Below are positions 24,096 to 62,307 of a stretch of 64,000 nt of DNA, one piece after another. Positions within the stretch are counted from its first letter, which is position 1; each line of letters starts with the position of its first letter. Both the position numbers and the translations under genes were made by a program. The stretch is from an uncultured Nitrososphaerota archaeon. Its GTDB lineage: Archaea; Thermoproteota; Nitrososphaeria; Nitrososphaerales; Gagatemarchaeaceae. The notes under the pieces are model-generated. The model had not been told where the DNA came from, ran no database searches, and saw only the letters and a list, made by a program, of their open reading frames with translations. The DNA lies in assembly GCA_963838925.1 (NCBI GenBank), contig CAWISW010000001.1, positions 320,001 to 384,000 of the forward strand. Reading direction: 5' to 3'.

Positions 24096-24326
24096 ATGCC
24101 CAGGCTTGTCAGGAGGAACCCTAGCAAGCCCGTGACGAAGTACTGCGTCAACTGCCTCGCCCCGCTTGAGAAGGGGAGCGAGCTCGGCGGCTGGCTCGTG
24201 CCCCAGGACTACTACTGCAAGAAGTGCGGCTACAAGGGGTACGTCTACCTCGAGGACAGGAGGAGCGAGGACGAGGAGGAAAGGCGCGAAAAGGCGCAAT
24301 CGTCGGCCGAGCGCCGAGACCCATAA
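24096..24326 (+). CDS. Small zinc-ribbon protein
   Basis: YCVNC...GWLVPQDYYCKKCGYKG; ATG 24096. Confidence 0.75.
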   Translation: MPRLVRRNPSKPVTKYCVNCLAPLEKGSELGGWLVPQDYYCKKCGYKGYVYLEDRRSEDEEERREKAQSSAERRDP

Positions 24327-24331
24327 CCAAG

Positions 24332-25492
24332 TTGTCCCCCAAGGCGAGGGCCCTCAACCCGCCCCTCTCGGAACCCGACGACCCAGAGCCTTATCCGAAG
24401 GTGAACTGGCTCTTCTTCTTCGTCGGCATCATCATCTTCACGGTGGCTATGATGTTCGTGTCGTTCCCGGCCGGCCTCTACACCGTCTTCGGGACGCACC
24501 TCTCGAACAGCTACACAGCCTCCACCCGCGTCACCGCCCTGACCTACGACTTTGTCTTCGCGAGCGTGCAGATCCCTGTCTTCGGCCCAATCTTCAGCAC
24601 CCTGGGAGGCATCTTCGTTCTCTTCTCCGCGATCTACTTCGCGTTCCTCGTGTTCGCGGCGAGGCAGGGCTCCGGCCTCCTCGGGGCGCTCCGCTCGTCC
24701 ACCACAAGGGGGTACGACGCGCTCTTCACGAACCCCCTCGCCGCCACCACGGTGCTGGTCGGGGCGACCAGCCTCATGACCCAGCTGGTCGACTCGGTCC
24801 AGACGAACGCCGGGATCTCCACGGGATCGCTGAGTGGGGACCCGTTCTCGCTGCTCGTGGACTTCACCGTCGCCCCCCTGCTCGAAGAGACCACGTTCAG
24901 GGTGATAATGCTGGGCATCCCGGTGCTGGTGCTCTCCCTCATCCTGCTCCGGGGCTTCTCTCTGAAAAAGGCGGCCAAGGTCTTGTGGCGCCCGTCCTCT
25001 TTCTGGGACGTCGACGAGACCGAGGAGGTGGTGACGCCGCGCACATTCAGCGATACGAGCCCGTCGATCTTCCCTGACCAGCAAGCAGACTCTCTCAAGG
25101 TGAGGGCGATGAAGCCAATCGTCTACGTGTTCCTGCTCCTCTCCTCCCTCATCTTCGGATATGCGCACTACGCCTCCGGGGCCGGGTGGGGGCCGGGAAA
25201 GATCAGCGAAGCAGCCCTCGCCGGGCTCGCCCTGGGCTACCTGTATGTCAAGTACGGCTTCCACACCAACGTCCTGCTCCACTGGTCGATCAACTACGTG
25301 GGGAGCGTCTTCTCGTTCCTCGCCCAGGGCCTCTGGGGGGTGCCTTGGACCTCCAACACGGGGAGCTTCCTTGACGTCATCCCCACCGTCGAGATAATCT
25401 TCCTCCTAGGCGTGCCGTCAGCGCTCATCGTGGCAAACGAGCTGCTGAAGCAGGCAATGGGCGGGAAGAAGAAGGGGCTGCCGGCGCTCTAG
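24332..25492 (+). CDS. CPBP (CAAX/Rce1-like, Abi) intramembrane metalloprotease
   Basis: APLLEETTFR (EExxxR), SSLIFGYAH (FxxxH), LLHWSINY (HxxxN); multi-TM; TTG start inferred. Confidence 0.9.
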   Translation: MSPKARALNPPLSEPDDPEPYPKVNWLFFFVGIIIFTVAMMFVSFPAGLYTVFGTHLSNSYTASTRVTALTYDFVFASVQIPVFGPIFSTLGGIFVLFSAIYFAFLVFAARQGSGLLGALRSSTTRGYDALFTNPLAATTVLVGATSLMTQLVDSVQTNAGISTGSLSGDPFSLLVDFTVAPLLEETTFRVIMLGIPVLVLSLILLRGFSLKKAAKVLWRPSSFWDVDETEEVVTPRTFSDTSPSIFPDQQADSLKVRAMKPIVYVFLLLSSLIFGYAHYASGAGWGPGKISEAALAGLALGYLYVKYGFHTNVLLHWSINYVGSVFSFLAQGLWGVPWTSNTGSFLDVIPTVEIIFLLGVPSALIVANELLKQAMGGKKKGLPAL

Positions 25493-51977: not shown

Positions 51978-52349
51978 ATGATAAGCGCTCCCAGGGGCCT
52001 CCTCAAGCTCGTCTCCCTACAGCTCTTCTCGGAGTCCTCCCTCTCGGGCGCGGAGCTCCAGGAGGAGATACGCAAGACCAGCGAGGGCGTCTGGAAGCCG
52101 GGGCCGGGCTCGATCTACTTCCTCCTCGACGAGCTGCGCAAGGGCGAGCTGATCGTCGAGCTCCCACACAAGGGAGGGACCATCAGGCGCTACGTCATCT
52201 CGAACAAGGGCAAGGCGGAGCTCACCAAGCTGAGCGGGAAGATCGACGAAGAGGTCAGGAGGCAGCTGAGGCTCCTCGCCTACTGCTGCGACCACACGTC
52301 GAACTCAAAGCTCGCCGACGGTCTGCGCAAGCTCTCTGAGGCGCGCTAG
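51978..52349 (+). CDS. PadR family regulator
   Basis: PRGLLK...L, W.PGPGSIY.LL..L, Y.IS.KG. Confidence 0.88.
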   Translation: MISAPRGLLKLVSLQLFSESSLSGAELQEEIRKTSEGVWKPGPGSIYFLLDELRKGELIVELPHKGGTIRRYVISNKGKAELTKLSGKIDEEVRRQLRLLAYCCDHTSNSKLADGLRKLSEAR

Positions 52350-55300
52350 CTCTTTGGCACTCTGCTCAACTTTGGCGTGAACCCGCGCCTCACCACGAAG
52401 ACGTACGCGGCGCCTATGAAGACGACCAGCGTCGCCACGGCGAACGTCCTGATGTCGGTGTAGTCGGTGGCGAAGCTCGCGTGCACCGTGCCCGGCGAAA
52501 AGATCGACACCGCTGTCTGCAGCTTGAGCGCCGAGGCGGACTCGATCTGGGTGCCGGATACGCCAAGGGTCCAGCCTTGGAACATTATCTCCACCGTGCC
52601 CGGTATTGCGGTTAGGGTAACGTTGCGTCCAGGAGGCGGGTAGATTGTCGCGTTCGCCCCTGCCTGGACCGTCCCGCTTATCGAACCGTACGAGTATGCC
52701 ACCGACCCCTGGCCGTCGGTGGATATGTTGAGGCCGGGGAAGAAGATGGCGGTCTCGTTCGCGGCGCCTGTGACAAGCAGCGTCGGCGAGATCGTCGTGC
52801 CGTTGTACGAGAACGCGGTCGCTCCCTGCCAGTAGGCGAAGGCCCATTGCCTAGCGGTCGTCTCGTTCAGGACCACGGTCGACCCCTGGTCGTGCCACTC
52901 GTTCTGGGTCCCCTCGGCCCCGCCTGCTGGCGTGCTCACGCCCACCTCCACGTAGAACTGGTGGGCGTACTGGACGTCGAGCTTGGTCGGCTGCGCGATT
53001 ATGGCTGCGGTGGTCTGGTTTGACATCCAGCGCTCCCCGTGCGTGCCCGGAAGCAGGAGCGGGACCTCCCAGGTCGACCCGGAGTCCATCCAGAAGCCGG
53101 TCGCCGAAGGACCCAGTGGGGACAGCAGCGTCGCCCCTTCGGACGTGTAGTTCAAGCTAGGCACGGGGGGCGAGCCTCCGGACCCCTGGACCGTGTAGTG
53201 GAGCGTGTCCAGGTACTGGTGGTAGTACATCAGGTCGCCGCTGAGAGGGGCCGAGGCGATGCCGGAGGGGTTCGTCTTCGTTATCCACTGCTCACTCGGG
53301 GACGAGCTGGGGAGAAGCGCGCTCGCGGCCCAGCTTGTGCCCGAGTCTAGCCAGAATGTCGTTTGGGTGGCGTTGAGCTGTGCGAGACCCTGAACTCCCA
53401 AGGAGGTGTAGTTCAAGCGAGGATTGCTGTATGCCCCTCCATCCAAGACGCCGAAGTTAAGAACGAACGCGTACTGGTGGTAGTAGAGCTCGGTCAGAGA
53501 ACCGGCTTGGTTGATGACCCCTAACGGGCTTCCAGCGAACCAACGCTCTACCGCGGAGGAGCCCACCAGAGGATTCGTGTAGTTGAACGAGGAGCCCGCG
53601 TCTACCCAGCTCTGGGACCCCCTTGCGGAGGCGCCGAATGACGTGAAGAGAACCGAGGGAGGTTGATAAGCTGTGCCACCTCCAATGACGCTGTAACCGA
53701 AGGTGATGAAGAACTGGTTGTAATACTGCAACGACACTGTCTGTCCAGCGGTCGCGGCACCATTATTGACCGAGCTGTCCCACCGTTCGCTAGACGTAGA
53801 TCCCGCAAGGGCCGAAGGGACCGTCCAACTGGATCCTGAGTCCAGCCAAACTGAAGAGGCCGACCCGATCAGCGGAAGGTTGTCCGGTGCGCCGAAAGCG
53901 GTAAAGTTGAGTCGGGGGGTCGAGGGTGAAGTTGTAGAGCCGATGAGGGAGTACTCGAATCCCTCGAGCACCTGCGAGTAGTAGCTCGACGTGTGCTGAT
54001 TACCCCCTGCTACGTCTGTGAAGGCGTTCTGAGAGGTGGCCCACCGTTGCGTCGGTGAGACCTGCAAGAGACCCAAGCCCGCCTGAGTGTTGTAGTCTGT
54101 CCAGCCTTGACACGAGAACGTTCCAGAGCCGGTGGTGACCGAGATTGTGCAAATGGTCTGTCCGGCGCTGTCCAGCGTTGTGCCGTTGACGACGATCGAG
54201 CCAGGGGTGGTCCATGATGCCGGGCTCTTGGGGGATGCCTGGTACGTGTTCTCGACCTGATAGTAGATGGTGGCGGAGAAGGTCTGGCAAGAGCTAGAAG
54301 AGCAGCTTCCGACTGTCAGGGAGTTCAAGCCGGCTGAGGAGAGGTATCTCGAGTTAGTCCCGGCCGGAGGAAGGGTGATGGTAATGGGCGAACACCCGGA
54401 GGACGCTTGGAAGTTGTAAGGTGTTCCGTTTGCCGGGATAGACGTCGGTGAGACCGAGCACCCTGAGAGGGAAACGGTGGTCGGAGGACCTGAGTTAGCC
54501 ACTGTGATCTGTATCGTCTCGTTGACGTTTGCGGTTATTGAAAACGTTCCGCTGCTAGCCACGTTGTTCGTGTCGCCGGAGTACACGGCGGTGATTGTGG
54601 CGGACTGTGTCGGAGTGTATGTTATCCCACACGAGGCGGATGAGAGGGTGCACGGGTTTGCCGAGAAGATGCCACCCTTGTCTGTCGATTGCCAAGTGAT
54701 GATTCCAGTTGGCGAGTACCCAACGACCGTCGCGCTGCAGGTGCTAGGCTTGCCGACGAGGAGGGTCGCGGGGGAGCAAATCACGCTTGTCGTGCTCGTC
54801 GCGGGAGAGACGGTAAGGGTGGTGGAGCCTGAGCTTCCGATGTTATTGGAATCGCCTGAGTACGTTGCCAATATTGTCGCGCCTCCTGCCCCGGTTGTCG
54901 AAACCGACACAAAGCACGTTCCGGATGCGAGGGTGCAAAATGTTGGCGAGGAGGCAAGAGACGTCGTCGCGGTGCCTGAGAACTGAGTGAAGGTCACAGT
55001 TCCAGTAGCGCCGTTGGGAGGGTAGCCAGACACGGCTGCAGTGCAGGTGGTCGGTGAAGGCGACCCTACAATCACCGTCGATGGCGCGCAACTGACAGCT
55101 GTGGTCGACGTCGCCTGATTCACCGTCAGGGTGAACGTTGCCATCCCTGAGTTCGTCGGCGTCGCGCTGTCGGTAACAGTGACGGTCACGGAGAACGACC
55201 CGGACCCTACGCCGCTTGGGACGCACGTGATTGAAACCGAATTTGAACTACTGCAACCAGCAGGCAAGCCCGACCATGCATAGGTGTACGGTGTCGTCCC

Positions 55301-55474
55301 GCCCGTCGCTGGGGGCGTGGAAATGGTTGTGGACTGGCCCACGACTATTGGGTTAGGCGCTGCCGAGGGCGAAACGGTCAAGCTCGCTGCATAGGCTGGC
55401 TTCGCGGCAAACAACAAGCCCAAAGCGATGAGTACGGTAAAGACGAGAAGCGCACTCCCGTGCCCCTTTCTCAT
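52346..55474 (-). CDS. Large Ser/Thr-rich cell-surface protein with Ig-like and W-x-D-x-G...ERW...YYxQ repeats, C-terminal TM anchor
   Basis: Signal peptide ending AYA; Ig-like repeats (A.YSGD.NN); four to five ~80-aa repeats; C-terminal hydrophobic helix plus basic tail. Confidence 0.88.
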   Translation of the reverse strand: MRKGHGSALLVFTVLIALGLLFAAKPAYAASLTVSPSAAPNPIVVGQSTTISTPPATGGTTPYTYAWSGLPAGCSSSNSVSITCVPSGVGSGSFSVTVTVTDSATPTNSGMATFTLTVNQATSTTAVSCAPSTVIVGSPSPTTCTAAVSGYPPNGATGTVTFTQFSGTATTSLASSPTFCTLASGTCFVSVSTTGAGGATILATYSGDSNNIGSSGSTTLTVSPATSTTSVICSPATLLVGKPSTCSATVVGYSPTGIITWQSTDKGGIFSANPCTLSSASCGITYTPTQSATITAVYSGDTNNVASSGTFSITANVNETIQITVANSGPPTTVSLSGCSVSPTSIPANGTPYNFQASSGCSPITITLPPAGTNSRYLSSAGLNSLTVGSCSSSSCQTFSATIYYQVENTYQASPKSPASWTTPGSIVVNGTTLDSAGQTICTISVTTGSGTFSCQGWTDYNTQAGLGLLQVSPTQRWATSQNAFTDVAGGNQHTSSYYSQVLEGFEYSLIGSTTSPSTPRLNFTAFGAPDNLPLIGSASSVWLDSGSSWTVPSALAGSTSSERWDSSVNNGAATAGQTVSLQYYNQFFITFGYSVIGGGTAYQPPSVLFTSFGASARGSQSWVDAGSSFNYTNPLVGSSAVERWFAGSPLGVINQAGSLTELYYHQYAFVLNFGVLDGGAYSNPRLNYTSLGVQGLAQLNATQTTFWLDSGTSWAASALLPSSSPSEQWITKTNPSGIASAPLSGDLMYYHQYLDTLHYTVQGSGGSPPVPSLNYTSEGATLLSPLGPSATGFWMDSGSTWEVPLLLPGTHGERWMSNQTTAAIIAQPTKLDVQYAHQFYVEVGVSTPAGGAEGTQNEWHDQGSTVVLNETTARQWAFAYWQGATAFSYNGTTISPTLLVTGAANETAIFFPGLNISTDGQGSVAYSYGSISGTVQAGANATIYPPPGRNVTLTAIPGTVEIMFQGWTLGVSGTQIESASALKLQTAVSIFSPGTVHASFATDYTDIRTFAVATLVVFIGAAYVFVVRRGFTPKLSRVPKS

Positions 55475-56724: not shown

Positions 56725-57042
56725 CTAGGGCCGCACGGCGTTCGAGACCAGCGAGTTGTACTCTCTCTGGAGCCTTGCCAGGACGCCTGTCCCTGCGGTC
56801 GTTATCCTGAGCCTGTCGCCCCCAATCCCCGGCTCGACCACGACGAACCCCTCGCCCACGAGCTCCTTCTCGAGGCGCCCGAACTCTCTCCCGCTGGGGT
56901 TGAGCCCGTAGCGCGAGTGCAGCCGAGCGAGTATCTCCCATTCGCTGAGCGTTGATTCCCTGAGCAGCGTCAGCACGAGAAGGGTGAGGTTCTGCGTGAG
57001 CCAGGCCGTGCGAAACCTGGACAGCACCCAACTCGATACCAA
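56725..57042 (-). CDS. PadR-like winged-helix protein
   Basis: LLVL.LL.E..LS.WEI...L...YG, L...GFV, IT.AG. Confidence 0.65.
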   Translation of the reverse strand: MVSSWVLSRFRTAWLTQNLTLLVLTLLRESTLSEWEILARLHSRYGLNPSGREFGRLEKELVGEGFVVVEPGIGGDRLRITTAGTGVLARLQREYNSLVSNAVRP

Positions 57043-57067: not shown

Positions 57068-57442
57068 TCAAGCTACGGTCCGCAGTTCCTCTGTCAATCC
57101 TTCGCTGAGCTGCATCTGGATCGCCCGGAATTCGCCTCTCCAGGCCTTTAGCAGGGACTGCCCGAGGTGTGACGCCTCCAAGAGGACCGTCCTGCCGTTC
57201 TTCTCCTTTACGATCAGCCCTTGGTCAGCCATGTGGTCGATCACGGGATAGACCTGGCCGGGGCTTAGGAGCGTGTGGAACCTCTCATGCAAGAGCGTGA
57301 TGATGTCGTATCCGCACAGCTTTCCCTTTTCGAGATAGTTCAGTATCAGGTACTCGAGCAGGGAGTTCACCATCCCACGCCTGTACTTGCGGACGAAACG
57401 GTCTATCTCAACAGCTGATGCCGGATTCACCAATTGTGACAC
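57068..57442 (-). CDS. PadR family regulator
   Basis: LEYLIL..L....LCGYDII..L..RF..LLSPGQVYP. Confidence 0.82.
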   Translation of the reverse strand: MSQLVNPASAVEIDRFVRKYRRGMVNSLLEYLILNYLEKGKLCGYDIITLLHERFHTLLSPGQVYPVIDHMADQGLIVKEKNGRTVLLEASHLGQSLLKAWRGEFRAIQMQLSEGLTEELRTVA

Positions 57443-58083: not shown

Positions 58084-59175
58084 ATGGCAACTAACCTTAC
58101 GAAGCTCATCGAAGCGATCAACCGCGTCGGCATCCAGAACGTGTCCTTGCTTTCGCGGATGACCGGGATGCCCACCGAGACGATCCGCTACACGATGAAG
58201 AAGAGGTTCCCGAACATGGGCCTCAACATCAGGACACCGTTGAACCACAGCGCGATGGGGCTCGAGCGCTATTTCGTAAAGCTCAAGCTAACCGAGGCGG
58301 CGGAGGAGTCGCTCTCGTCGATAGTCCAGGGACTCTCTTCGAAGGCCTTCCTCACCTACTGGTGCGAGGCGCCCCTCGAGCGCAAGTACCTTTCCTTCTT
58401 CTCGGTCCCCGTGTCTTTGGTCGACGAGTTCACGGGATTCCTGGACAGGCTCGTAAAGGACGGAGTCCTCGTCGAATACAACCCGGAGCGGCTCGAATGG
58501 TCAAGGCACCCCGAGCTGAAGAGCAGGTATTACGACTTCGCAACGGGAGAGTGGTCCATCAACTGGGACAAGATCAAGAAGGCGGGAGAAGCGCCGCCCG
58601 CGCCAGACTACCCGGACGAGCCATCCGGGTCGCCCGCCATCGACGTCATCGACACGCTCATCATCAAGGAACTCGAGCTAGACTCGTGGCGCAACATCGC
58701 AGAGATCGCGCGCAAGCTGAAGCTGAACGAGAGGACCGTGAGGTGGCACTACAGGAAGCACGTCGTGGACATCGCCCAGTCCAGCTATGTGAACTGGAAG
58801 CCGGTGACCCCGAAGGAATATGGGAAGGCCGTGGGACTGGTCCACGAGTTCAAGGACATCTCGAAGGAGAGACTCGCCAAGGTCAGGGTGGTCTTCAACA
58901 ACTTCCCCTTCCCATGGTTCGAGGGCGGACGAAAGGACGGATACTACCAGGTGCAGTCCGCCATCCCGGGGCAGTACTACATGGAATCCTTGCGCTTCCT
59001 CAATGCGAGCCTGGCCGGCGTGGTGGAAGACTGGAAGGCATGGACCGTCGACGTCGCGTCCACGCTCTGGTACACAGTGCCTTACGAGAACTTCGATGAC
59101 AAGAGGGGCTGGTTCTTTGACAAGGAATCCGCGCTAGAGGCCGTGCTGCCTCAGAAGATGAAAATAAAGCAGTGA
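58084..59175 (+). CDS. Double-HTH Lrp/AsnC-like transcriptional regulator (paralog B)
   Basis: N-terminal HTH (VSLLSRMTGMPTETIRY), second HTH (IDVIDTLIIKEL..DSWRNIAEIARKLKLNERTVRWHY); TAATATATTATA box upstream. Confidence 0.8.
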   Translation: MATNLTKLIEAINRVGIQNVSLLSRMTGMPTETIRYTMKKRFPNMGLNIRTPLNHSAMGLERYFVKLKLTEAAEESLSSIVQGLSSKAFLTYWCEAPLERKYLSFFSVPVSLVDEFTGFLDRLVKDGVLVEYNPERLEWSRHPELKSRYYDFATGEWSINWDKIKKAGEAPPAPDYPDEPSGSPAIDVIDTLIIKELELDSWRNIAEIARKLKLNERTVRWHYRKHVVDIAQSSYVNWKPVTPKEYGKAVGLVHEFKDISKERLAKVRVVFNNFPFPWFEGGRKDGYYQVQSAIPGQYYMESLRFLNASLAGVVEDWKAWTVDVASTLWYTVPYENFDDKRGWFFDKESALEAVLPQKMKIKQ

Positions 59176-59179
59176 GGGC

Positions 59180-59410
59180 CTAGTTAGGCCCCCCAGAACC
59201 GCCAGGGTCTCCGCCCGATATCATGTGGAGGTTAGGCCCGCCAGACCCTCCCGGATCCCCACTGGTGATCACGTGAAGGTTTGGTCCCCCAGACCCTCCG
59301 GGATCTCCGTTGAAGATTCCGTGCACTCCATGCGCCATGAGGGCGAACGCGACGAACGTCACGGCGAACGGAGCGACCTTGATCAGCTTGCTCAGAAGTC
59401 GACTATTCAT
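59180..59410 (-). CDS. Small exported peptide precursor 2 with three GDPGGSGGPN cores
   Basis: Basic N-region plus hydrophobic helix, then 3 x 16-aa unit; stop 4 nt from stop of convergent regulator. Confidence 0.85.
   Translation of the reverse strand: MNSRLLSKLIKVAPFAVTFVAFALMAHGVHGIFNGDPGGSGGPNLHVITSGDPGGSGGPNLHMISGGDPGGSGGPN
59183..59326 (-). repeat. Three 48-nt tandem coding repeats (xHxIxxGDPGGSGGPN)
   Basis: Core codons differ only synonymously between the three units. Confidence 0.9.
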
Positions 59411-59463
59411 TGGACGAATGGCGTGGGGATTACTATTACCGCACTATGCAGGCCCGAGTTACT

Positions 59464-59480
59464 AATCCAGATACTGGATT
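59464..59480. promoter_or_regulatory. Palindrome AATCCAG-ATA-CTGGATT, candidate operator; second AATC-N9-GATT site at 59588-59604
   Basis: Read directly in the divergent intergenic region upstream of peptide 2. Confidence 0.6.
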
Positions 59481-59603
59481 CACTGGCCGCGAATCTACAC
59501 GATTAAGGATGTCCAGTTTTCATGCGATTGGGCAGGTCCGCGGGGTCTGCGTTACCGCATTCATAACCGCTATATACCATTATCATGAATCCGGAAACCA
59601 GAT

Positions 59604-60083
59604 TTGGAGATGCCTGCCGAAAGAGGGACGCGGCCCAGCCACGACGAGCTCGAGGCGATCCTCAGGGAAGGGATTCAGGACGGACTCCGCAGTGTCCTCG
59701 GTCAGAGCGGGCTCCAGATGGTGCTGAAGGAGTGCCCGCTCGAGCTCATCACCGCCGAGCCGGCGCGATTCCACGAGTTCCTGAAGGGCATATTCATGGA
59801 GGGCGGGGCGTTGGTGATTGAGCGAGAGATAGGCAGGAGGCTGCTTCAAAGACTGGGCGACGAGTTCGACCCGGCGCGGCACTCACGACATAGGTGGTTG
59901 GTTGCTGCCACCACAAGGAATAACGGGTCTGCGAGGGTGTCCAAGGAAGAGAGGGAAGTCCTTAGGCGGTTCCTCTCGCCAGAACCGCTTCCCAAGGAAC
60001 GCATCGGCAGGGCGAACGTCGGGGCAGCACCGATCGAGGTCACCGCGGCCAGCTTCGCGCGCGCGTTCAAAAAGGGAACATAG
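59604..60083 (+). CDS. Small cytoplasmic protein resembling NitrOD5/DUF3227-type domain
   Basis: I...L..VLG..G...V...........P..F...L..IF..GA.VIER.I pattern (recalled, not searched). Confidence 0.6.
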   Translation: MEMPAERGTRPSHDELEAILREGIQDGLRSVLGQSGLQMVLKECPLELITAEPARFHEFLKGIFMEGGALVIEREIGRRLLQRLGDEFDPARHSRHRWLVAATTRNNGSARVSKEEREVLRRFLSPEPLPKERIGRANVGAAPIEVTAASFARAFKKGT

Positions 60084-60086
60084 ACA

Positions 60087-60878
60087 GTGCAGCGGTTCGT
60101 CGGCGCCCTCAGCTCTGTAGTCGTAGCCTTGCTGGTGGCCCTTCTGTACGCGTTGAGGCCAGAGCCGTTCATCGCTCTCGCCCTCGTGTTCCCCACGCTG
60201 ACCAGCGTCTTCATCACCGCCCCGTCTCTCGTGGTCGCCTACGTGGCGGCGAGGGCGTACTCGCGGGAGGGGGTGCTCAGCGTGCTCTTCTTGGGCTTGG
60301 GGGCGGTGGTCTTCGGCTCCACCGCCCTTCTCGCTTCTGTGTTCGTCGACACCGAGGGGCGCAACTTCACGGCGACCGTCTTCGCGACGGGCGCCCTGCT
60401 CTCCGCTGCCCTCAGCTTCGCTTGCGCTTACCTGACTTATCTAGGTGGCACGCCCAAGGCGGCCAGCAGCCGTCTTGTCTACGCGTGGGTGCCGCTGACG
60501 GTGTTGGCGATCGTCGCGATCATGGTCGGGGCAGCCACGGGCGCCTTGCCGCCTTTCTACGCCGAGGGCGTGGGGACCACAGCCCTAGATCAGGCGGTGC
60601 TGTTGGCGGCCTCGCTCGCTTTCGTCTGCGCGGCGGCGGCGATATTCGCGGTCTTCTCGTCTTCCAGGTCTGGCGTCCTCTTCTGGTACGCCACGTCCTT
60701 GTGCGCGACGGCCGTTGGGCTGGTTGAAATCGCGTTCTCGAACGGCGACCTCAGCTCAATCACTATGCGGGGCGGCTGGGCGACCTTGTATCTGGGAGGG
60801 GTGTTGTTGGTGACGTCGGTGCTTTCCGCCGAGAGGTTGAACGGGCTGCCTTCGGGGAGGAACGGACGCAAGGCTTGA
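60087..60878 (+). CDS. Integral membrane protein (about 8 TM), stand-alone MASE-like sensor domain
   Basis: Continuous hydrophobic helices; GALPPFY.EG.G.T.L.Q motif; in operon with neighbours. Confidence 0.65.
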   Translation: MQRFVGALSSVVVALLVALLYALRPEPFIALALVFPTLTSVFITAPSLVVAYVAARAYSREGVLSVLFLGLGAVVFGSTALLASVFVDTEGRNFTATVFATGALLSAALSFACAYLTYLGGTPKAASSRLVYAWVPLTVLAIVAIMVGAATGALPPFYAEGVGTTALDQAVLLAASLAFVCAAAAIFAVFSSSRSGVLFWYATSLCATAVGLVEIAFSNGDLSSITMRGGWATLYLGGVLLVTSVLSAERLNGLPSGRNGRKA

Positions 60879-60933: not shown

Positions 60934-62307
60934 TTGACCGACCTCGCAACGACCCTAGGCGTTACCGGCGCCTTCGTCATCGAGGTGGGGGCTGTCCTTC
61001 TTGCGCTCAGGAACGTCCTCGGACAGAAGCTGACCAGGGTCGTCGACACGAAGGCCGTGCTCGTGTTCGCGCACGTCTTCATCCTCGCGATCTTCGCGCT
61101 GGAATACATGAGGTTCTTCCTGTCGTCCTCCGTAGGCTTCATGGACTTCTACACCTTCGGAGTGGTCTCGCTGATCCTCTGGATTGGGATCCTCCTCACG
61201 TCCCTTGCCTACATCGTCTTCTTCCGTCCGAGCGAGCGCAGCTTTGGGCAGAGGGTCGTGGCTCTCGTCACGAGCAGGCTCTTTCCCTTCGGCCTCATGC
61301 TAGTGCTCTTCGTGGCGTACATCCTGGCGGTGGACGGGTTCCTGATAGCCACGAGCCCGTTCTCCTTTGTCACTCTCCGCGACCTGACGGGGCAATCTGG
61401 CACGGTGCCCCTCTTCAACGGGACGCTGAAGGCTCTGGTGCTCTCGCTCTACCTTGTCTTCCTCCTCTTCCCCTCGCTGCAATTCGTGCTTGCGATCCGC
61501 TCGATTTCGGACCCTCAGACGAAGCGGGCCGTCAGCGTGCTGATCTGCGGCTGGGACATTATCGCGCTGGACGGGCTCTTGATCTACGGGTTCCTGCCGT
61601 CCCTCGGCGTCAACGCGTTAGGCCCAGGGCAGCTGATAGCGGGGCTCGTGCTCGGCGTCACCGGGTACTCGATGCGCAAGAGCTCCGTCCTCGAGAAGAT
61701 GTTCGAGCAGGTCGAGGCCAAGTCCCCTCGAACGGAGCCGGTTATTAATGGGGTTCTAGCGAGCGAGCGTCCCGTGTCAAGCTACAAGGGGACGATGCTC
61801 TTCGAGGCCGACCCGTCGGCGAACTACGAGCGAGCGGTGAAGGACTTTGCCCTTGAGATGATCGCTAGCGGGCGACTCGTGTTCGCGTTCACGTCGAGGG
61901 GGAGCCCCGTCTACCTACTGCTCAAGGACATCCCCGGCCTGCGCTTCTTCATCCTCTCTGAGAGTTCCTATCCCAAGCCAAGCGGAGGCTCCCTGGAGGT
62001 GATGGTCCCGCGCAGCGACTACGCCGTACTCCTGAACGTCATGGACGAGACCGTGACGCACAGCCCTGAGAAGCCGAAGGCGATTATCTTCGACAACATC
62101 TCGTCGCTCATCCTCGACGCGGGGTTCCAGGAGTGCTACAAGTTCCTGAGGCAGGTGAACGAGATACTCAGCCACGGCGACGTGGTCTCAATCTTCCTCG
62201 TGCTCTTGAAGGCGCACGACGACAAGACGCTGAACATCGTCAAGAACCTGTACTCGGGACACCTGATATTCGACGCGACCGGACTTCGCGTCCTGAAGCA
62301 GGGCTGA
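60934..62307 (+). CDS. 7TM membrane domain fused to inactive RecA/KaiC-like (DUF835-like) domain
   Basis: About 7 TM N-terminus; C-terminal IIFDNISSLIL..GF...YKFL without Walker A. Confidence 0.7.
   Translation: MTDLATTLGVTGAFVIEVGAVLLALRNVLGQKLTRVVDTKAVLVFAHVFILAIFALEYMRFFLSSSVGFMDFYTFGVVSLILWIGILLTSLAYIVFFRPSERSFGQRVVALVTSRLFPFGLMLVLFVAYILAVDGFLIATSPFSFVTLRDLTGQSGTVPLFNGTLKALVLSLYLVFLLFPSLQFVLAIRSISDPQTKRAVSVLICGWDIIALDGLLIYGFLPSLGVNALGPGQLIAGLVLGVTGYSMRKSSVLEKMFEQVEAKSPRTEPVINGVLASERPVSSYKGTMLFEADPSANYERAVKDFALEMIASGRLVFAFTSRGSPVYLLLKDIPGLRFFILSESSYPKPSGGSLEVMVPRSDYAVLLNVMDETVTHSPEKPKAIIFDNISSLILDAGFQECYKFLRQVNEILSHGDVVSIFLVLLKAHDDKTLNIVKNLYSGHLIFDATGLRVLKQG

Follow-up and report, generated by a model that had tools for sequence, protein, structure and literature searches.

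The described systems closest to the gene pair analysed here are the RRNPP(A) cassettes of Bacillota and of their phages, above all Rgg-SHP. In these, a cytoplasmic helix-turn-helix (HTH) regulator is encoded next to a tiny open reading frame (ORF) whose product starts with basic residues, continues with a hydrophobic stretch, and carries its active part in the short C-terminus. Several paralogous cassettes may be present per genome, the active part diversifies, and the SHP genes, as reportedly laid out by Fleuchot and coworkers in 2011, are located either convergent or divergent to the regulator gene. To our knowledge, peptide pheromone systems with cytoplasmic receptors are restricted to Bacillota and their mobile elements. 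In one account (PMC12700828), the RRNPPA receptors are described as tetratricopeptide repeat (TPR) proteins that are found in gram-positive bacteria as well as in the viruses of these and whose peptides are internalised. The pair under study resides on a stretch of 64,000 nucleotides (nt) with 63% G+C (the window; contig CAWISW010000001.1, positions 320,001 to 384,000) from an uncultured Nitrososphaerota archaeon. It comprises a 363-amino acid regulator and a convergently encoded 76-amino acid precursor of a small, predicted exported peptide, and is a conserved, self-contained module of non-ammonia-oxidiser-type Nitrososphaerales and of some other lineages of the phylum. While its layout, paralogous cassettes, diversifying active part, and two gene orientations resemble the Rgg-SHP/RRNPP cassettes, the TPR that defines these is missing, the putative receptor being composed of two Lrp/AsnC-like modules in another domain of life. 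Further differences are the highly conserved head of the peptide and the three units of the precursor.

The regulator appears to be built from elements resembling those of the Lrp/AsnC proteins (FFRP). As in these, each half is predicted to consist of a winged HTH followed by an alpha/beta sandwich, but two modules are joined in one chain, whereas Lrp/AsnC proteins carry one module of ~150 amino acids per chain and dimerise via the alpha/beta domain; a further difference is an additional conserved aromatic-rich extension per module. We know of no Lrp protein that is paired with a peptide gene. Two Lrp-like modules in one unit are also present in NirDL and AhbA-AhbB, of which NirDL is the only solved single chain with both modules fused. 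Concerning the precursor, tandem identical cores with short spacers occur in yeast alpha-factor and cyanobactin PatE-type precursors, with which the archaeal peptide shares the selected identity of the cores and the variable copy number; it differs from them in lacking a linked protease for processing or enzyme for modification, and in its cores, which are decamers rich in Gly and Pro without a known activity. Neither an archaeal peptide-signal system nor a fused double-Lrp regulator paired with a peptide was found in the literature searched, beyond which further papers could exist.

The regulator and its small partner gene

The AlphaFold2 (AF2) model of the regulator is confident, with a predicted local distance difference test (pLDDT) score of 91.2 and a predicted template modelling (pTM) score of 0.89, and displays the succession of a winged HTH and an alpha/beta domain twice. 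Each module ends in the conserved aromatic-rich extension. In the Pfam scan, the HTH_AsnC-type model matched the second HTH below threshold (E 2e-5; 24.7 bits against a cut-off of 27), the ligand-domain model AsnC_trans_reg gave no match, and a scan of the regulator against NCBIfam returned nothing. When a profile of 43 family members was compared with the PDB sequences, Lrp/AsnC proteins were matched by both halves, the first with an E-value of 4.9e-3 and the second with 1.8e-5. Single Lrp proteins superpose on each half with a Z-score of ~7 (6.6-7.6) over 140-148 residues (VIA-align); this superposition along entire Lrp chains and the modelled secondary structure lend support to a RAM-type alpha/beta ligand domain. 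The closest solved chain is the siroheme decarboxylase NirDL, which was retrieved by Foldseek with an E-value of 7.4e-9 and aligned by VIA-align with a Z-score of 16.5, a root-mean-square deviation of 4.3, 288 of 309 residues, and 11% identity, the next entry having a Z-score of 9.6. The third helix, that is, the recognition helix, of both HTHs is basic according to the sequence and the modelled helices. From this, the regulator is confidently predicted to consist of two fused Lrp/AsnC-like modules forming a single-chain pseudo-dimer. A TPR family was found neither in Pfam at E<=0.1 nor in the AF2 model, which places the regulator outside RRNPP. The fused chains are ~360-400 amino acids long. 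All of the 105 homologs are unnamed or annotated as "hypothetical", and the archaeal clusters retrieved from the ESM Atlas were likewise either unnamed or of a generic HTH type.

The small ORF, read from the earliest in-frame start codon, faces the regulator gene with a stop-to-stop gap of 4 nt (59176-59179). It has a net charge of +3 in the N-terminal flank, a hydrophobic stretch of ~24 residues ending in small residues, and a net charge of -3 in the C-terminal flank, and its head is followed by three tandem 16-residue units (Table 1). Each pair of units is distinguished by 5-6 of the 10 core codons, always synonymously; over the three unit pairs, which are not independent of each other, this amounts to 17 codon differences, none of which is non-synonymous. 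Tandem Repeats Finder detected no DNA repeat in the region 59100-59500, which, together with the synonymous-only differences, argues for maintenance of the repeat at the protein level only. Pfam and NCBIfam scans of the peptide gave nothing, the ESM Atlas provided no usable match to a 40-amino acid family member as query, and the window ORF itself matches the hidden Markov model (HMM) of the peptide family weakly (E 0.0078-0.036). Since spurious ORFs of ~76 amino acids are numerous in a window of such high G+C content, the ORF taken alone would be within chance; it is its conservation in other genomes that marks it as a real gene.

The original prediction, made without database searches, had described a 76-amino acid ORF with a signal-like head and three units ending 4 nt from the stop codon of a 363-amino acid regulator, with core codons differing at synonymous sites only, and both ORFs and the codon pattern were found as described. 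Likewise, its two HTHs with two putative ligand-binding domains are supported by the AF2 model and the PDB profile matches in both halves, and its non-TPR, Lrp-derived receptor architecture agrees with the profile, AF2, Foldseek, and VIA-align results. As a whole, its interpretation is supported in part.

Occurrence and evolution of the pair

The regulator was searched for in 151 genomes of the same order and is present in 50 of them, with up to 10 copies per genome. After removal of one duplicate of the window locus and one locus without a tblastn match, 112 of the 113 collected loci were analysed; an unpublished genome (G108) is counted in the regulator, peptide, and SBP_bac_5 tallies, with none of its locus DNA being used. 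Adjacency was scored with a peptide HMM built from the first matches, three weaker matches being left uncounted. By this measure, a homologous ORF of 38-50 amino acids lies beside the regulator in 55 of the 112 loci. The arrangement is convergent in 45 pairs, with gaps of -4 to 142 nt, and divergent upstream in the remaining 10, which are 158-396 nt apart and all belong to one family of genomes. In the regulator tree of the 112 loci, one clade unites the window protein with six further regulators, from four taxonomic families (Shimodaira-Hasegawa-like approximate likelihood ratio test, 100), and in this clade the convergent peptide ORF is present in 7/7 loci. Of the four regulator paralogs in the window's genome, two of the other three are accompanied by a convergent ORF of 43-45 amino acids with a hydrophobic helix; one of these, cassette A, is located within the window, its peptide and regulator genes being 6 nt apart.

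A wider sample of 400 other genomes across the phylum contained the regulator family in 119, and of five examined loci that match the regulator strongly and belong to other families of the phylum, two carry a convergent ORF of 44-45 amino acids that is, judged by eye, of the same build. The peptide profile had no match in this sample at the cut-off of E<=1e-4; as the two divergent peptides were recognised by eye, the profile evidently misses distant members. The reverse search yielded 62 peptide-profile matches in 43 of the 151 genomes, of which 56 lie within 500 nt of a regulator match, the distance taken as "beside" in a hand comparison of the two tables; without G108, these numbers are 55 of 61. 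All 43 peptide-bearing genomes are among the 50 regulator-bearing ones. The six non-adjacent matches include one at a contig end, one at 775 nt from a contig start, two partial, doubtful ones, and two true orphans, located beside a 343-amino acid membrane protein (G000 C3) and beside a transposase (G054), respectively.

Purifying selection on the peptide is shown at the codon level. In 21 gap-free orthologous 40-codon ORFs of the main peptide family, pairwise differences at the first, second, and third codon position amount to 2178, 1158, and 4492, respectively. The same-genus ortholog of the window peptide has two units, whose cores differ at 6/10 codons, again all synonymously. Database searches with the peptide profile retrieved 211 proteins and, in a second search, 114 cluster representatives, none of them with a name or Pfam family; among the matches shown, most reach the C-terminus or end ~1-4 residues short of it, and the longer matches are N-terminal over-extensions.

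The number of tail units varies between one, two, and three among relatives. Distant members of the window clade have single-unit peptides of 40-48 amino acids at the orthologous position, close homologs have 59-77 amino acids and 2-3 units, and three database homologs contain two or three units. As one unit roughly equals in length the complete tail of the single-unit relatives, the entire tail was multiplied as one module. Cores are identical within a precursor, and the differences between species concern core positions 6, 8, and 10. A 52-amino acid database protein of the cassette-A-type clade (P0324) contains two identical tail cores, which shows that tail duplication arose independently in two clades. 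The multi-copy cores of the original prediction thus recur with variable copy number, its notion of selection on the peptide sequence is supported by the synonymous-only unit divergence in the window and the same-genus ortholog, and the scan of regulator homologs for adjacent small signal-peptide ORFs gave the 7/7, 2/5, and 55/112 loci reported above.

In an alignment of 41 peptide sequences (A2), no column is invariant apart from Met1 and the Gly with which the hydrophobic stretch ends; the window peptide is not a row of this alignment and, in our reading, its first unit starts directly after the corresponding Gly. Among the 21 main-family ORFs, the N-terminal motif and the Gly/Ala/Ser-rich helix are best conserved, the acidic, Gly-rich tail is less so, and its last residues are variable. 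Correspondingly, divergence of tail versus head is 0.32 versus 0.18 at a regulator distance of 0.2-0.4, and 0.51 versus 0.30 at 0.4-0.6. The N-terminal motif comprises nine residues and is nearly invariant across clades except for the window's clade, which has a different N-terminus without it. The correlation with regulator distance is 0.59 for the head and 0.51 for the tail; since both reflect common descent, these values do not separate the hypotheses discussed below.

The net charge of the N-terminal flank is >=0 in 52 of 54 peptides and that of the C-terminal flank <=0 in 53 of 54, which predicts an N-in/C-out orientation with the tail outside the cell. By charges and lengths, the peptide has Sec-type signal features, namely, a basic n-region, an h-region, and small residues at its end, and cleavage would occur after the conserved Gly. 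Two other export signals were considered and rejected. Single-unit relatives have only ~3-5 residues after Gly-Gly, too few for a double-glycine leader, for which linked C39-peptidase transporters were not searched. In prepilin-type (class III) signals, Lys or Arg is followed directly by Gly, Ala, or Ser before the hydrophobic stretch; in alignment A2, the basic residue stands, by eye, at least two positions before the small residue.

Promoter block and genomic surroundings

Upstream of the peptide gene, a conserved block has the clade consensus TTAGTAAC, 6 nt, YTG[C/A]ATA, 3 nt, CGNTAATA and is found at the same distance from the start codon in 7/7 clade loci from four taxonomic families, with differing flanking intergenic DNA. 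The heptamer GTTACTA is present at the block position in all seven loci; within the 2.2-4.1 kb covered per locus, it has a single further occurrence, at L008. The last element of the block is likely a TATA-like box, and the first two elements are a candidate operator. Of 52 regions upstream of peptide genes, 18 contain the related element TGCRTA, compared with 3.6% of background windows, with 12 matches at -45 to -48; the family with divergent layout has a different peptide promoter. A sigma-70 promoter scan gave nothing, its bacterial consensus not applying to archaea. CGGTAA/TTACCG pairs 40 nt apart occur upstream of the regulator or PadR gene in three loci.

Table 1. Features of the window relevant to the regulator/peptide pair and its surroundings (positions in nt of the window unless stated otherwise)
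Feature	Position	Strand	Basis or remark
Double Lrp/AsnC-like single-chain protein, 363 amino acids	58084..59175	+	ORF, AF2 model, Pfam, PDB profile matches
Winged HTH 1	~amino acids 1-58 of regulator		AF2 secondary structure
Alpha/beta domain 1 with aromatic-rich extension	~amino acids 59-165 of regulator		AF2; followed by linker
Winged HTH 2	~amino acids 186-230 of regulator		AF2; Pfam HTH_AsnC-type 186-220
Alpha/beta domain 2 with extension	~amino acids 235-345 of regulator		AF2
Precursor of small, predicted exported peptide, 76 amino acids	59180..59410	-	including stop codon 59180-59182
Signal-peptide-like/signal-anchor head, amino acids 1-28	59327..59410	-	charge and hydrophobicity analysis
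Three tandem tail units together	59183..59326	-	
Tail unit 1	59279-59326	-	6-residue His-containing spacer and GDPGGSGGPN
Tail unit 2	59231-59278	-	6-residue His-containing spacer and GDPGGSGGPN
Tail unit 3	59183-59230	-	6-residue His-containing spacer and GDPGGSGGPN
Conserved promoter block of peptide gene	59434..59465	-	TTAGTAAC, 6 nt, CTGCATA, 3 nt, CGGTAATA; ends 23 nt before ATG
Perfect 7-3-7 palindrome abutting promoter block	59464..59480	.	window copy only, not in L006 ortholog; low weight
G+C-rich hairpin spanning both stop codons	59174..59193	.	terminator-like scan, consensus match only
PadR-family winged HTH gene, divergent from regulator	57068..57442	-	Pfam PadR, E 5.4e-8
Second small winged HTH-like gene, downstream of PadR	56725..57042	-	tblastn conservation; no Pfam match
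ORF of no family, 159 amino acids, first in divergent unit beside peptide promoter	59604..60083		
MASE3-like membrane protein, same divergent unit	60087..60878		weak Pfam match below cut-off
Membrane protein with C-terminal DUF835-like domain	60934..62307	+	weak Pfam matches below cut-offs
CPBP/Rce1-like intramembrane protease, cassette A	24224..25492	+	directly before 45-amino acid peptide gene, same strand
Family peptide of cassette A, 45 amino acids	25641..25778	+	convergent with regulator paralog
Regulator paralog of cassette A, 390 amino acids	25785..26957	-	

Orthologs of the PadR gene occupy the same relative place in all window-clade loci (tblastn; Pfam on L120, L121, and L122), and orthologs of the second winged HTH-like gene were detected by tblastn at L006, L007, L008/L122, L009, L010, and L035; in every locus of the clade, both genes lie upstream of the regulator in divergent orientation. 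On the other side of the pair, a DUF835-like ortholog (65% identity over 194 amino acids) lies beside the peptide gene in a same-genus genome (L006/L121), and DUF835-type paralogs occur near three other regulator loci; these proteins may be membrane sensors linked to the module, the link being suggestive only. In the largest peptide clade, a gene of the VIT1/CCC1 family of metal transporters is divergent from the peptide gene and shares the intergenic region with it in 15 loci (e.g., L030 437-1144). In view of this neighbourhood, the two His and two Asp residues that are invariant in or near the second HTH of the regulator constitute a possible metal link. According to the clustering of the 112 loci, a CPBP protease is encoded beside the peptide in three of them, including cassette A, where its location directly before the peptide gene hints at a role in processing. 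A LysE-like exporter, read from the ORF sequence without a family-library scan, was noted at one locus of the window's own genome. As the gene context varies between VIT1, CPBP, LysE-like, DUF835, and PadR genes, the regulator and peptide genes constitute an autonomous two-gene unit.

The peptide-less loci form separate clades with other fixed neighbours, which are UbiA together with a polyprenyl synthetase, or response regulators. In L002 (G000 C2:591661-595659) and ~20 related peptide-less loci, a UbiA prenyltransferase gene is always located downstream on the same strand, often with a polyprenyl synthetase gene, which suggests control of isoprenoid or quinone lipid synthesis in this clade; at L002, a KaiC/RAD55-like ATPase is encoded divergently upstream of the regulator. 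Two loci of a clade otherwise scored as peptide-less (L037 and L039, of G085 and G029) have weak peptide-like frames (E 0.015 and 5e-4) that share sequence with the 3' end of the regulator gene and continue beyond the usual tail end; they may be decayed or frame-shifted peptide genes. In the complete genome G144, the module seems to have undergone a recent segmental duplication: C1:1736104-1737343 and C1:2160546-2161779 (L010 and L035) encode identical regulators, with peptides differing at several residues and different upstream DNA.

The orphan family peptide of the window's own genome (G000 C3:163370-164642; L115 3371-4642) is encoded upstream of the 343-amino acid multi-pass membrane protein on the same strand; the latter has no Pfam match and, by tblastn, no homolog in the other collected loci. 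About 1 kb from the orphan peptide, a small defence-type island comprises genes for a BglII-type restriction endonuclease and an SRA/SAD-HNH nuclease (G000 C3:165579-166929; L115 5580-6927). At 52349..55474, the window encodes a 1042-amino acid protein with bacterial Ig-like (Big_3_5) repeats, a large relative of which flanks the module in the same-genus genome (L121 8628-11000), indicating conservation of the local gene order in the genus.

Function of the pair and competing explanations

In a broad sense, the regulator and the predicted exported peptide could act as a cognate signal/regulator unit, a reading that is quite possible though short of probable. In its favour are the adjacency of the two genes found in both search directions, the selection on the peptide, the modular and multiplied tails, the charges of the flanks, the fold of the regulator, and the conserved promoter block. 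According to this scenario, the peptide would enter the membrane by the Sec route, and the tail outside the cell would be the active part. Release of the tail would probably occur by cleavage after the conserved Gly and, in the window peptide, also between the three identical units. The cytoplasmic regulator would bind DNA at the peptide promoter and control the cassette, its activity being coupled to the peptide either by uptake and direct binding, in the manner of RRNPP and Rgg-SHP, or indirectly. A strict RRNPP-like loop, with re-import of the peptide and its direct binding to the regulator, is rather unlikely. Doubtful, too, is a first archaeal peptide-based cell-to-cell signalling system, in which a Sec-exported multi-copy pro-peptide would give rise to identical 10-16-residue signals that would be taken up and bound by a single-chain receptor with its origin in the amino acid-sensing Lrp/AsnC regulators and not in TPR proteins. 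On this reading, each of the paralogous cassettes would serve as a channel of its own within the same cell. Peptide uptake would be possible owing to SBP_bac_5 genes, which are present in the window's own genome and in 133 of the 151 genomes of the order, and in multiple copies in the two main peptide-bearing families.

Several points weigh against a signalling function. Being near-universal in the order, the SBP_bac_5 genes do not discriminate. An adjacent peptide is lacking in 57 of the 112 family loci, and this type of regulator therefore does not need one; furthermore, the loci come from related genomes, so that fewer observations are independent than the counts suggest. No exporter or protease dedicated to the pair is conserved with it, CPBP being restricted to 3 of the 112 loci, and the closest solved chain to the regulator is an enzyme and not a transcription factor. 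The conserved N-terminal motif and helix would be unusual for a mere signal peptide and fit a plain secreted pheromone less well; the richness of the helix in small residues suggests a lasting intramembrane interaction rather than a disposable signal peptide. Finally, as paralogous peptides of the same genome hardly differ in their heads, any specificity must lie in the tail of 12-16 residues.

The same traits of the head, which is more conserved than the tail and has a small-residue-rich helix, would be accounted for by a membrane micro-protein, single-pass and N-in/C-out, that modulates or accompanies neighbouring membrane proteins and whose transcription the double-Lrp protein controls via another ligand, with no feedback from the peptide. 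This realistic, if somewhat unlikely, explanation is also consistent with the recurrence of membrane proteins beside the pair (VIT1 in 15 loci, CPBP in 3, DUF835 near 4), with the orphan peptide gene directly upstream of a membrane protein gene with no regulator nearby, and with the conserved operator-like block in the peptide promoter; moreover, small molecules are the usual ligands of these domains in Lrp proteins, that is, of the alpha/beta ones. It is at odds with the identical tandem units, which are under strong selection, arose twice independently, and fit released products better than an anchored tail at unequal distances from the membrane, with the exchange of neighbouring membrane proteins between clades while the regulator is constant, and with the tail being very small for a modulator.

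The near-invariance of the nine-residue motif across clades, hard to explain for a plain signal peptide, and its cytoplasmic location under the predicted topology might instead point to a tether or anti-regulator. The motif would hold the regulator at the membrane, from which proteolysis or an event at the outer tail would free it, in a minimal form of regulated intramembrane proteolysis. Invariant surface-type residues common to all regulator paralogs and the CPBP intramembrane proteases beside the peptide in three loci would be in line with such a mechanism. It is nevertheless improbable: it is weakened by the motif-free N-terminus of the window's clade, nine residues would make a very small docking site, and the peptide-less clades retain the same invariant regulator residues.

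It is very improbable that the 363-amino acid protein is not a transcription factor but a NirDL/AhbAB-like enzyme or a peptide-handling chaperone acting on the peptide, for instance as the modifier of a ribosomal peptide, or on a tetrapyrrole-like substrate. NirDL is by far the best structural match, and the invariant His and Asp residues of the second HTH would suit such a function. However, as the only fused double-Lrp chain in the PDB, NirDL may match by architecture alone, at an identity as low as stated above. There is no siroheme-decarboxylase-type match in Pfam or NCBIfam at E<=0.1 and there are no heme or radical-SAM genes within ~6 kb on each side (12 kb examined); both recognition helices are basic, and the family has expanded into many paralogs with varied neighbours, as regulators do. 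For these reasons, the match is read as shared architecture and not as shared function. That the small ORF is a chance open frame, its conservation reflecting a terminator or RNA element, is of negligible probability, as the many spurious ORFs of similar length and the hairpin overlapping the junction are set against the third-position excess of differences, the synonymous-only unit divergence, the 211 and 114 database matches, mostly reaching the C-terminus, and the retention of the ORF in both convergent and divergent layouts.

Summarizing, what was a single odd ORF has become a defined, as yet unnamed small-protein family together with an equally unnamed double-Lrp regulator family, in more than 50 natural pairs. 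These pairs offer diversified tails, variants with one, two, or three units, and a conserved promoter block. NirDL would no longer be the only natural single-chain pseudo-dimer of Lrp type, the regulator being the second. A signalling loop, if real, would be without precedent in archaea; without it, the pair would still represent a new class of micro-proteins linked to a regulator, in soil archaea that are abundant and uncultured.

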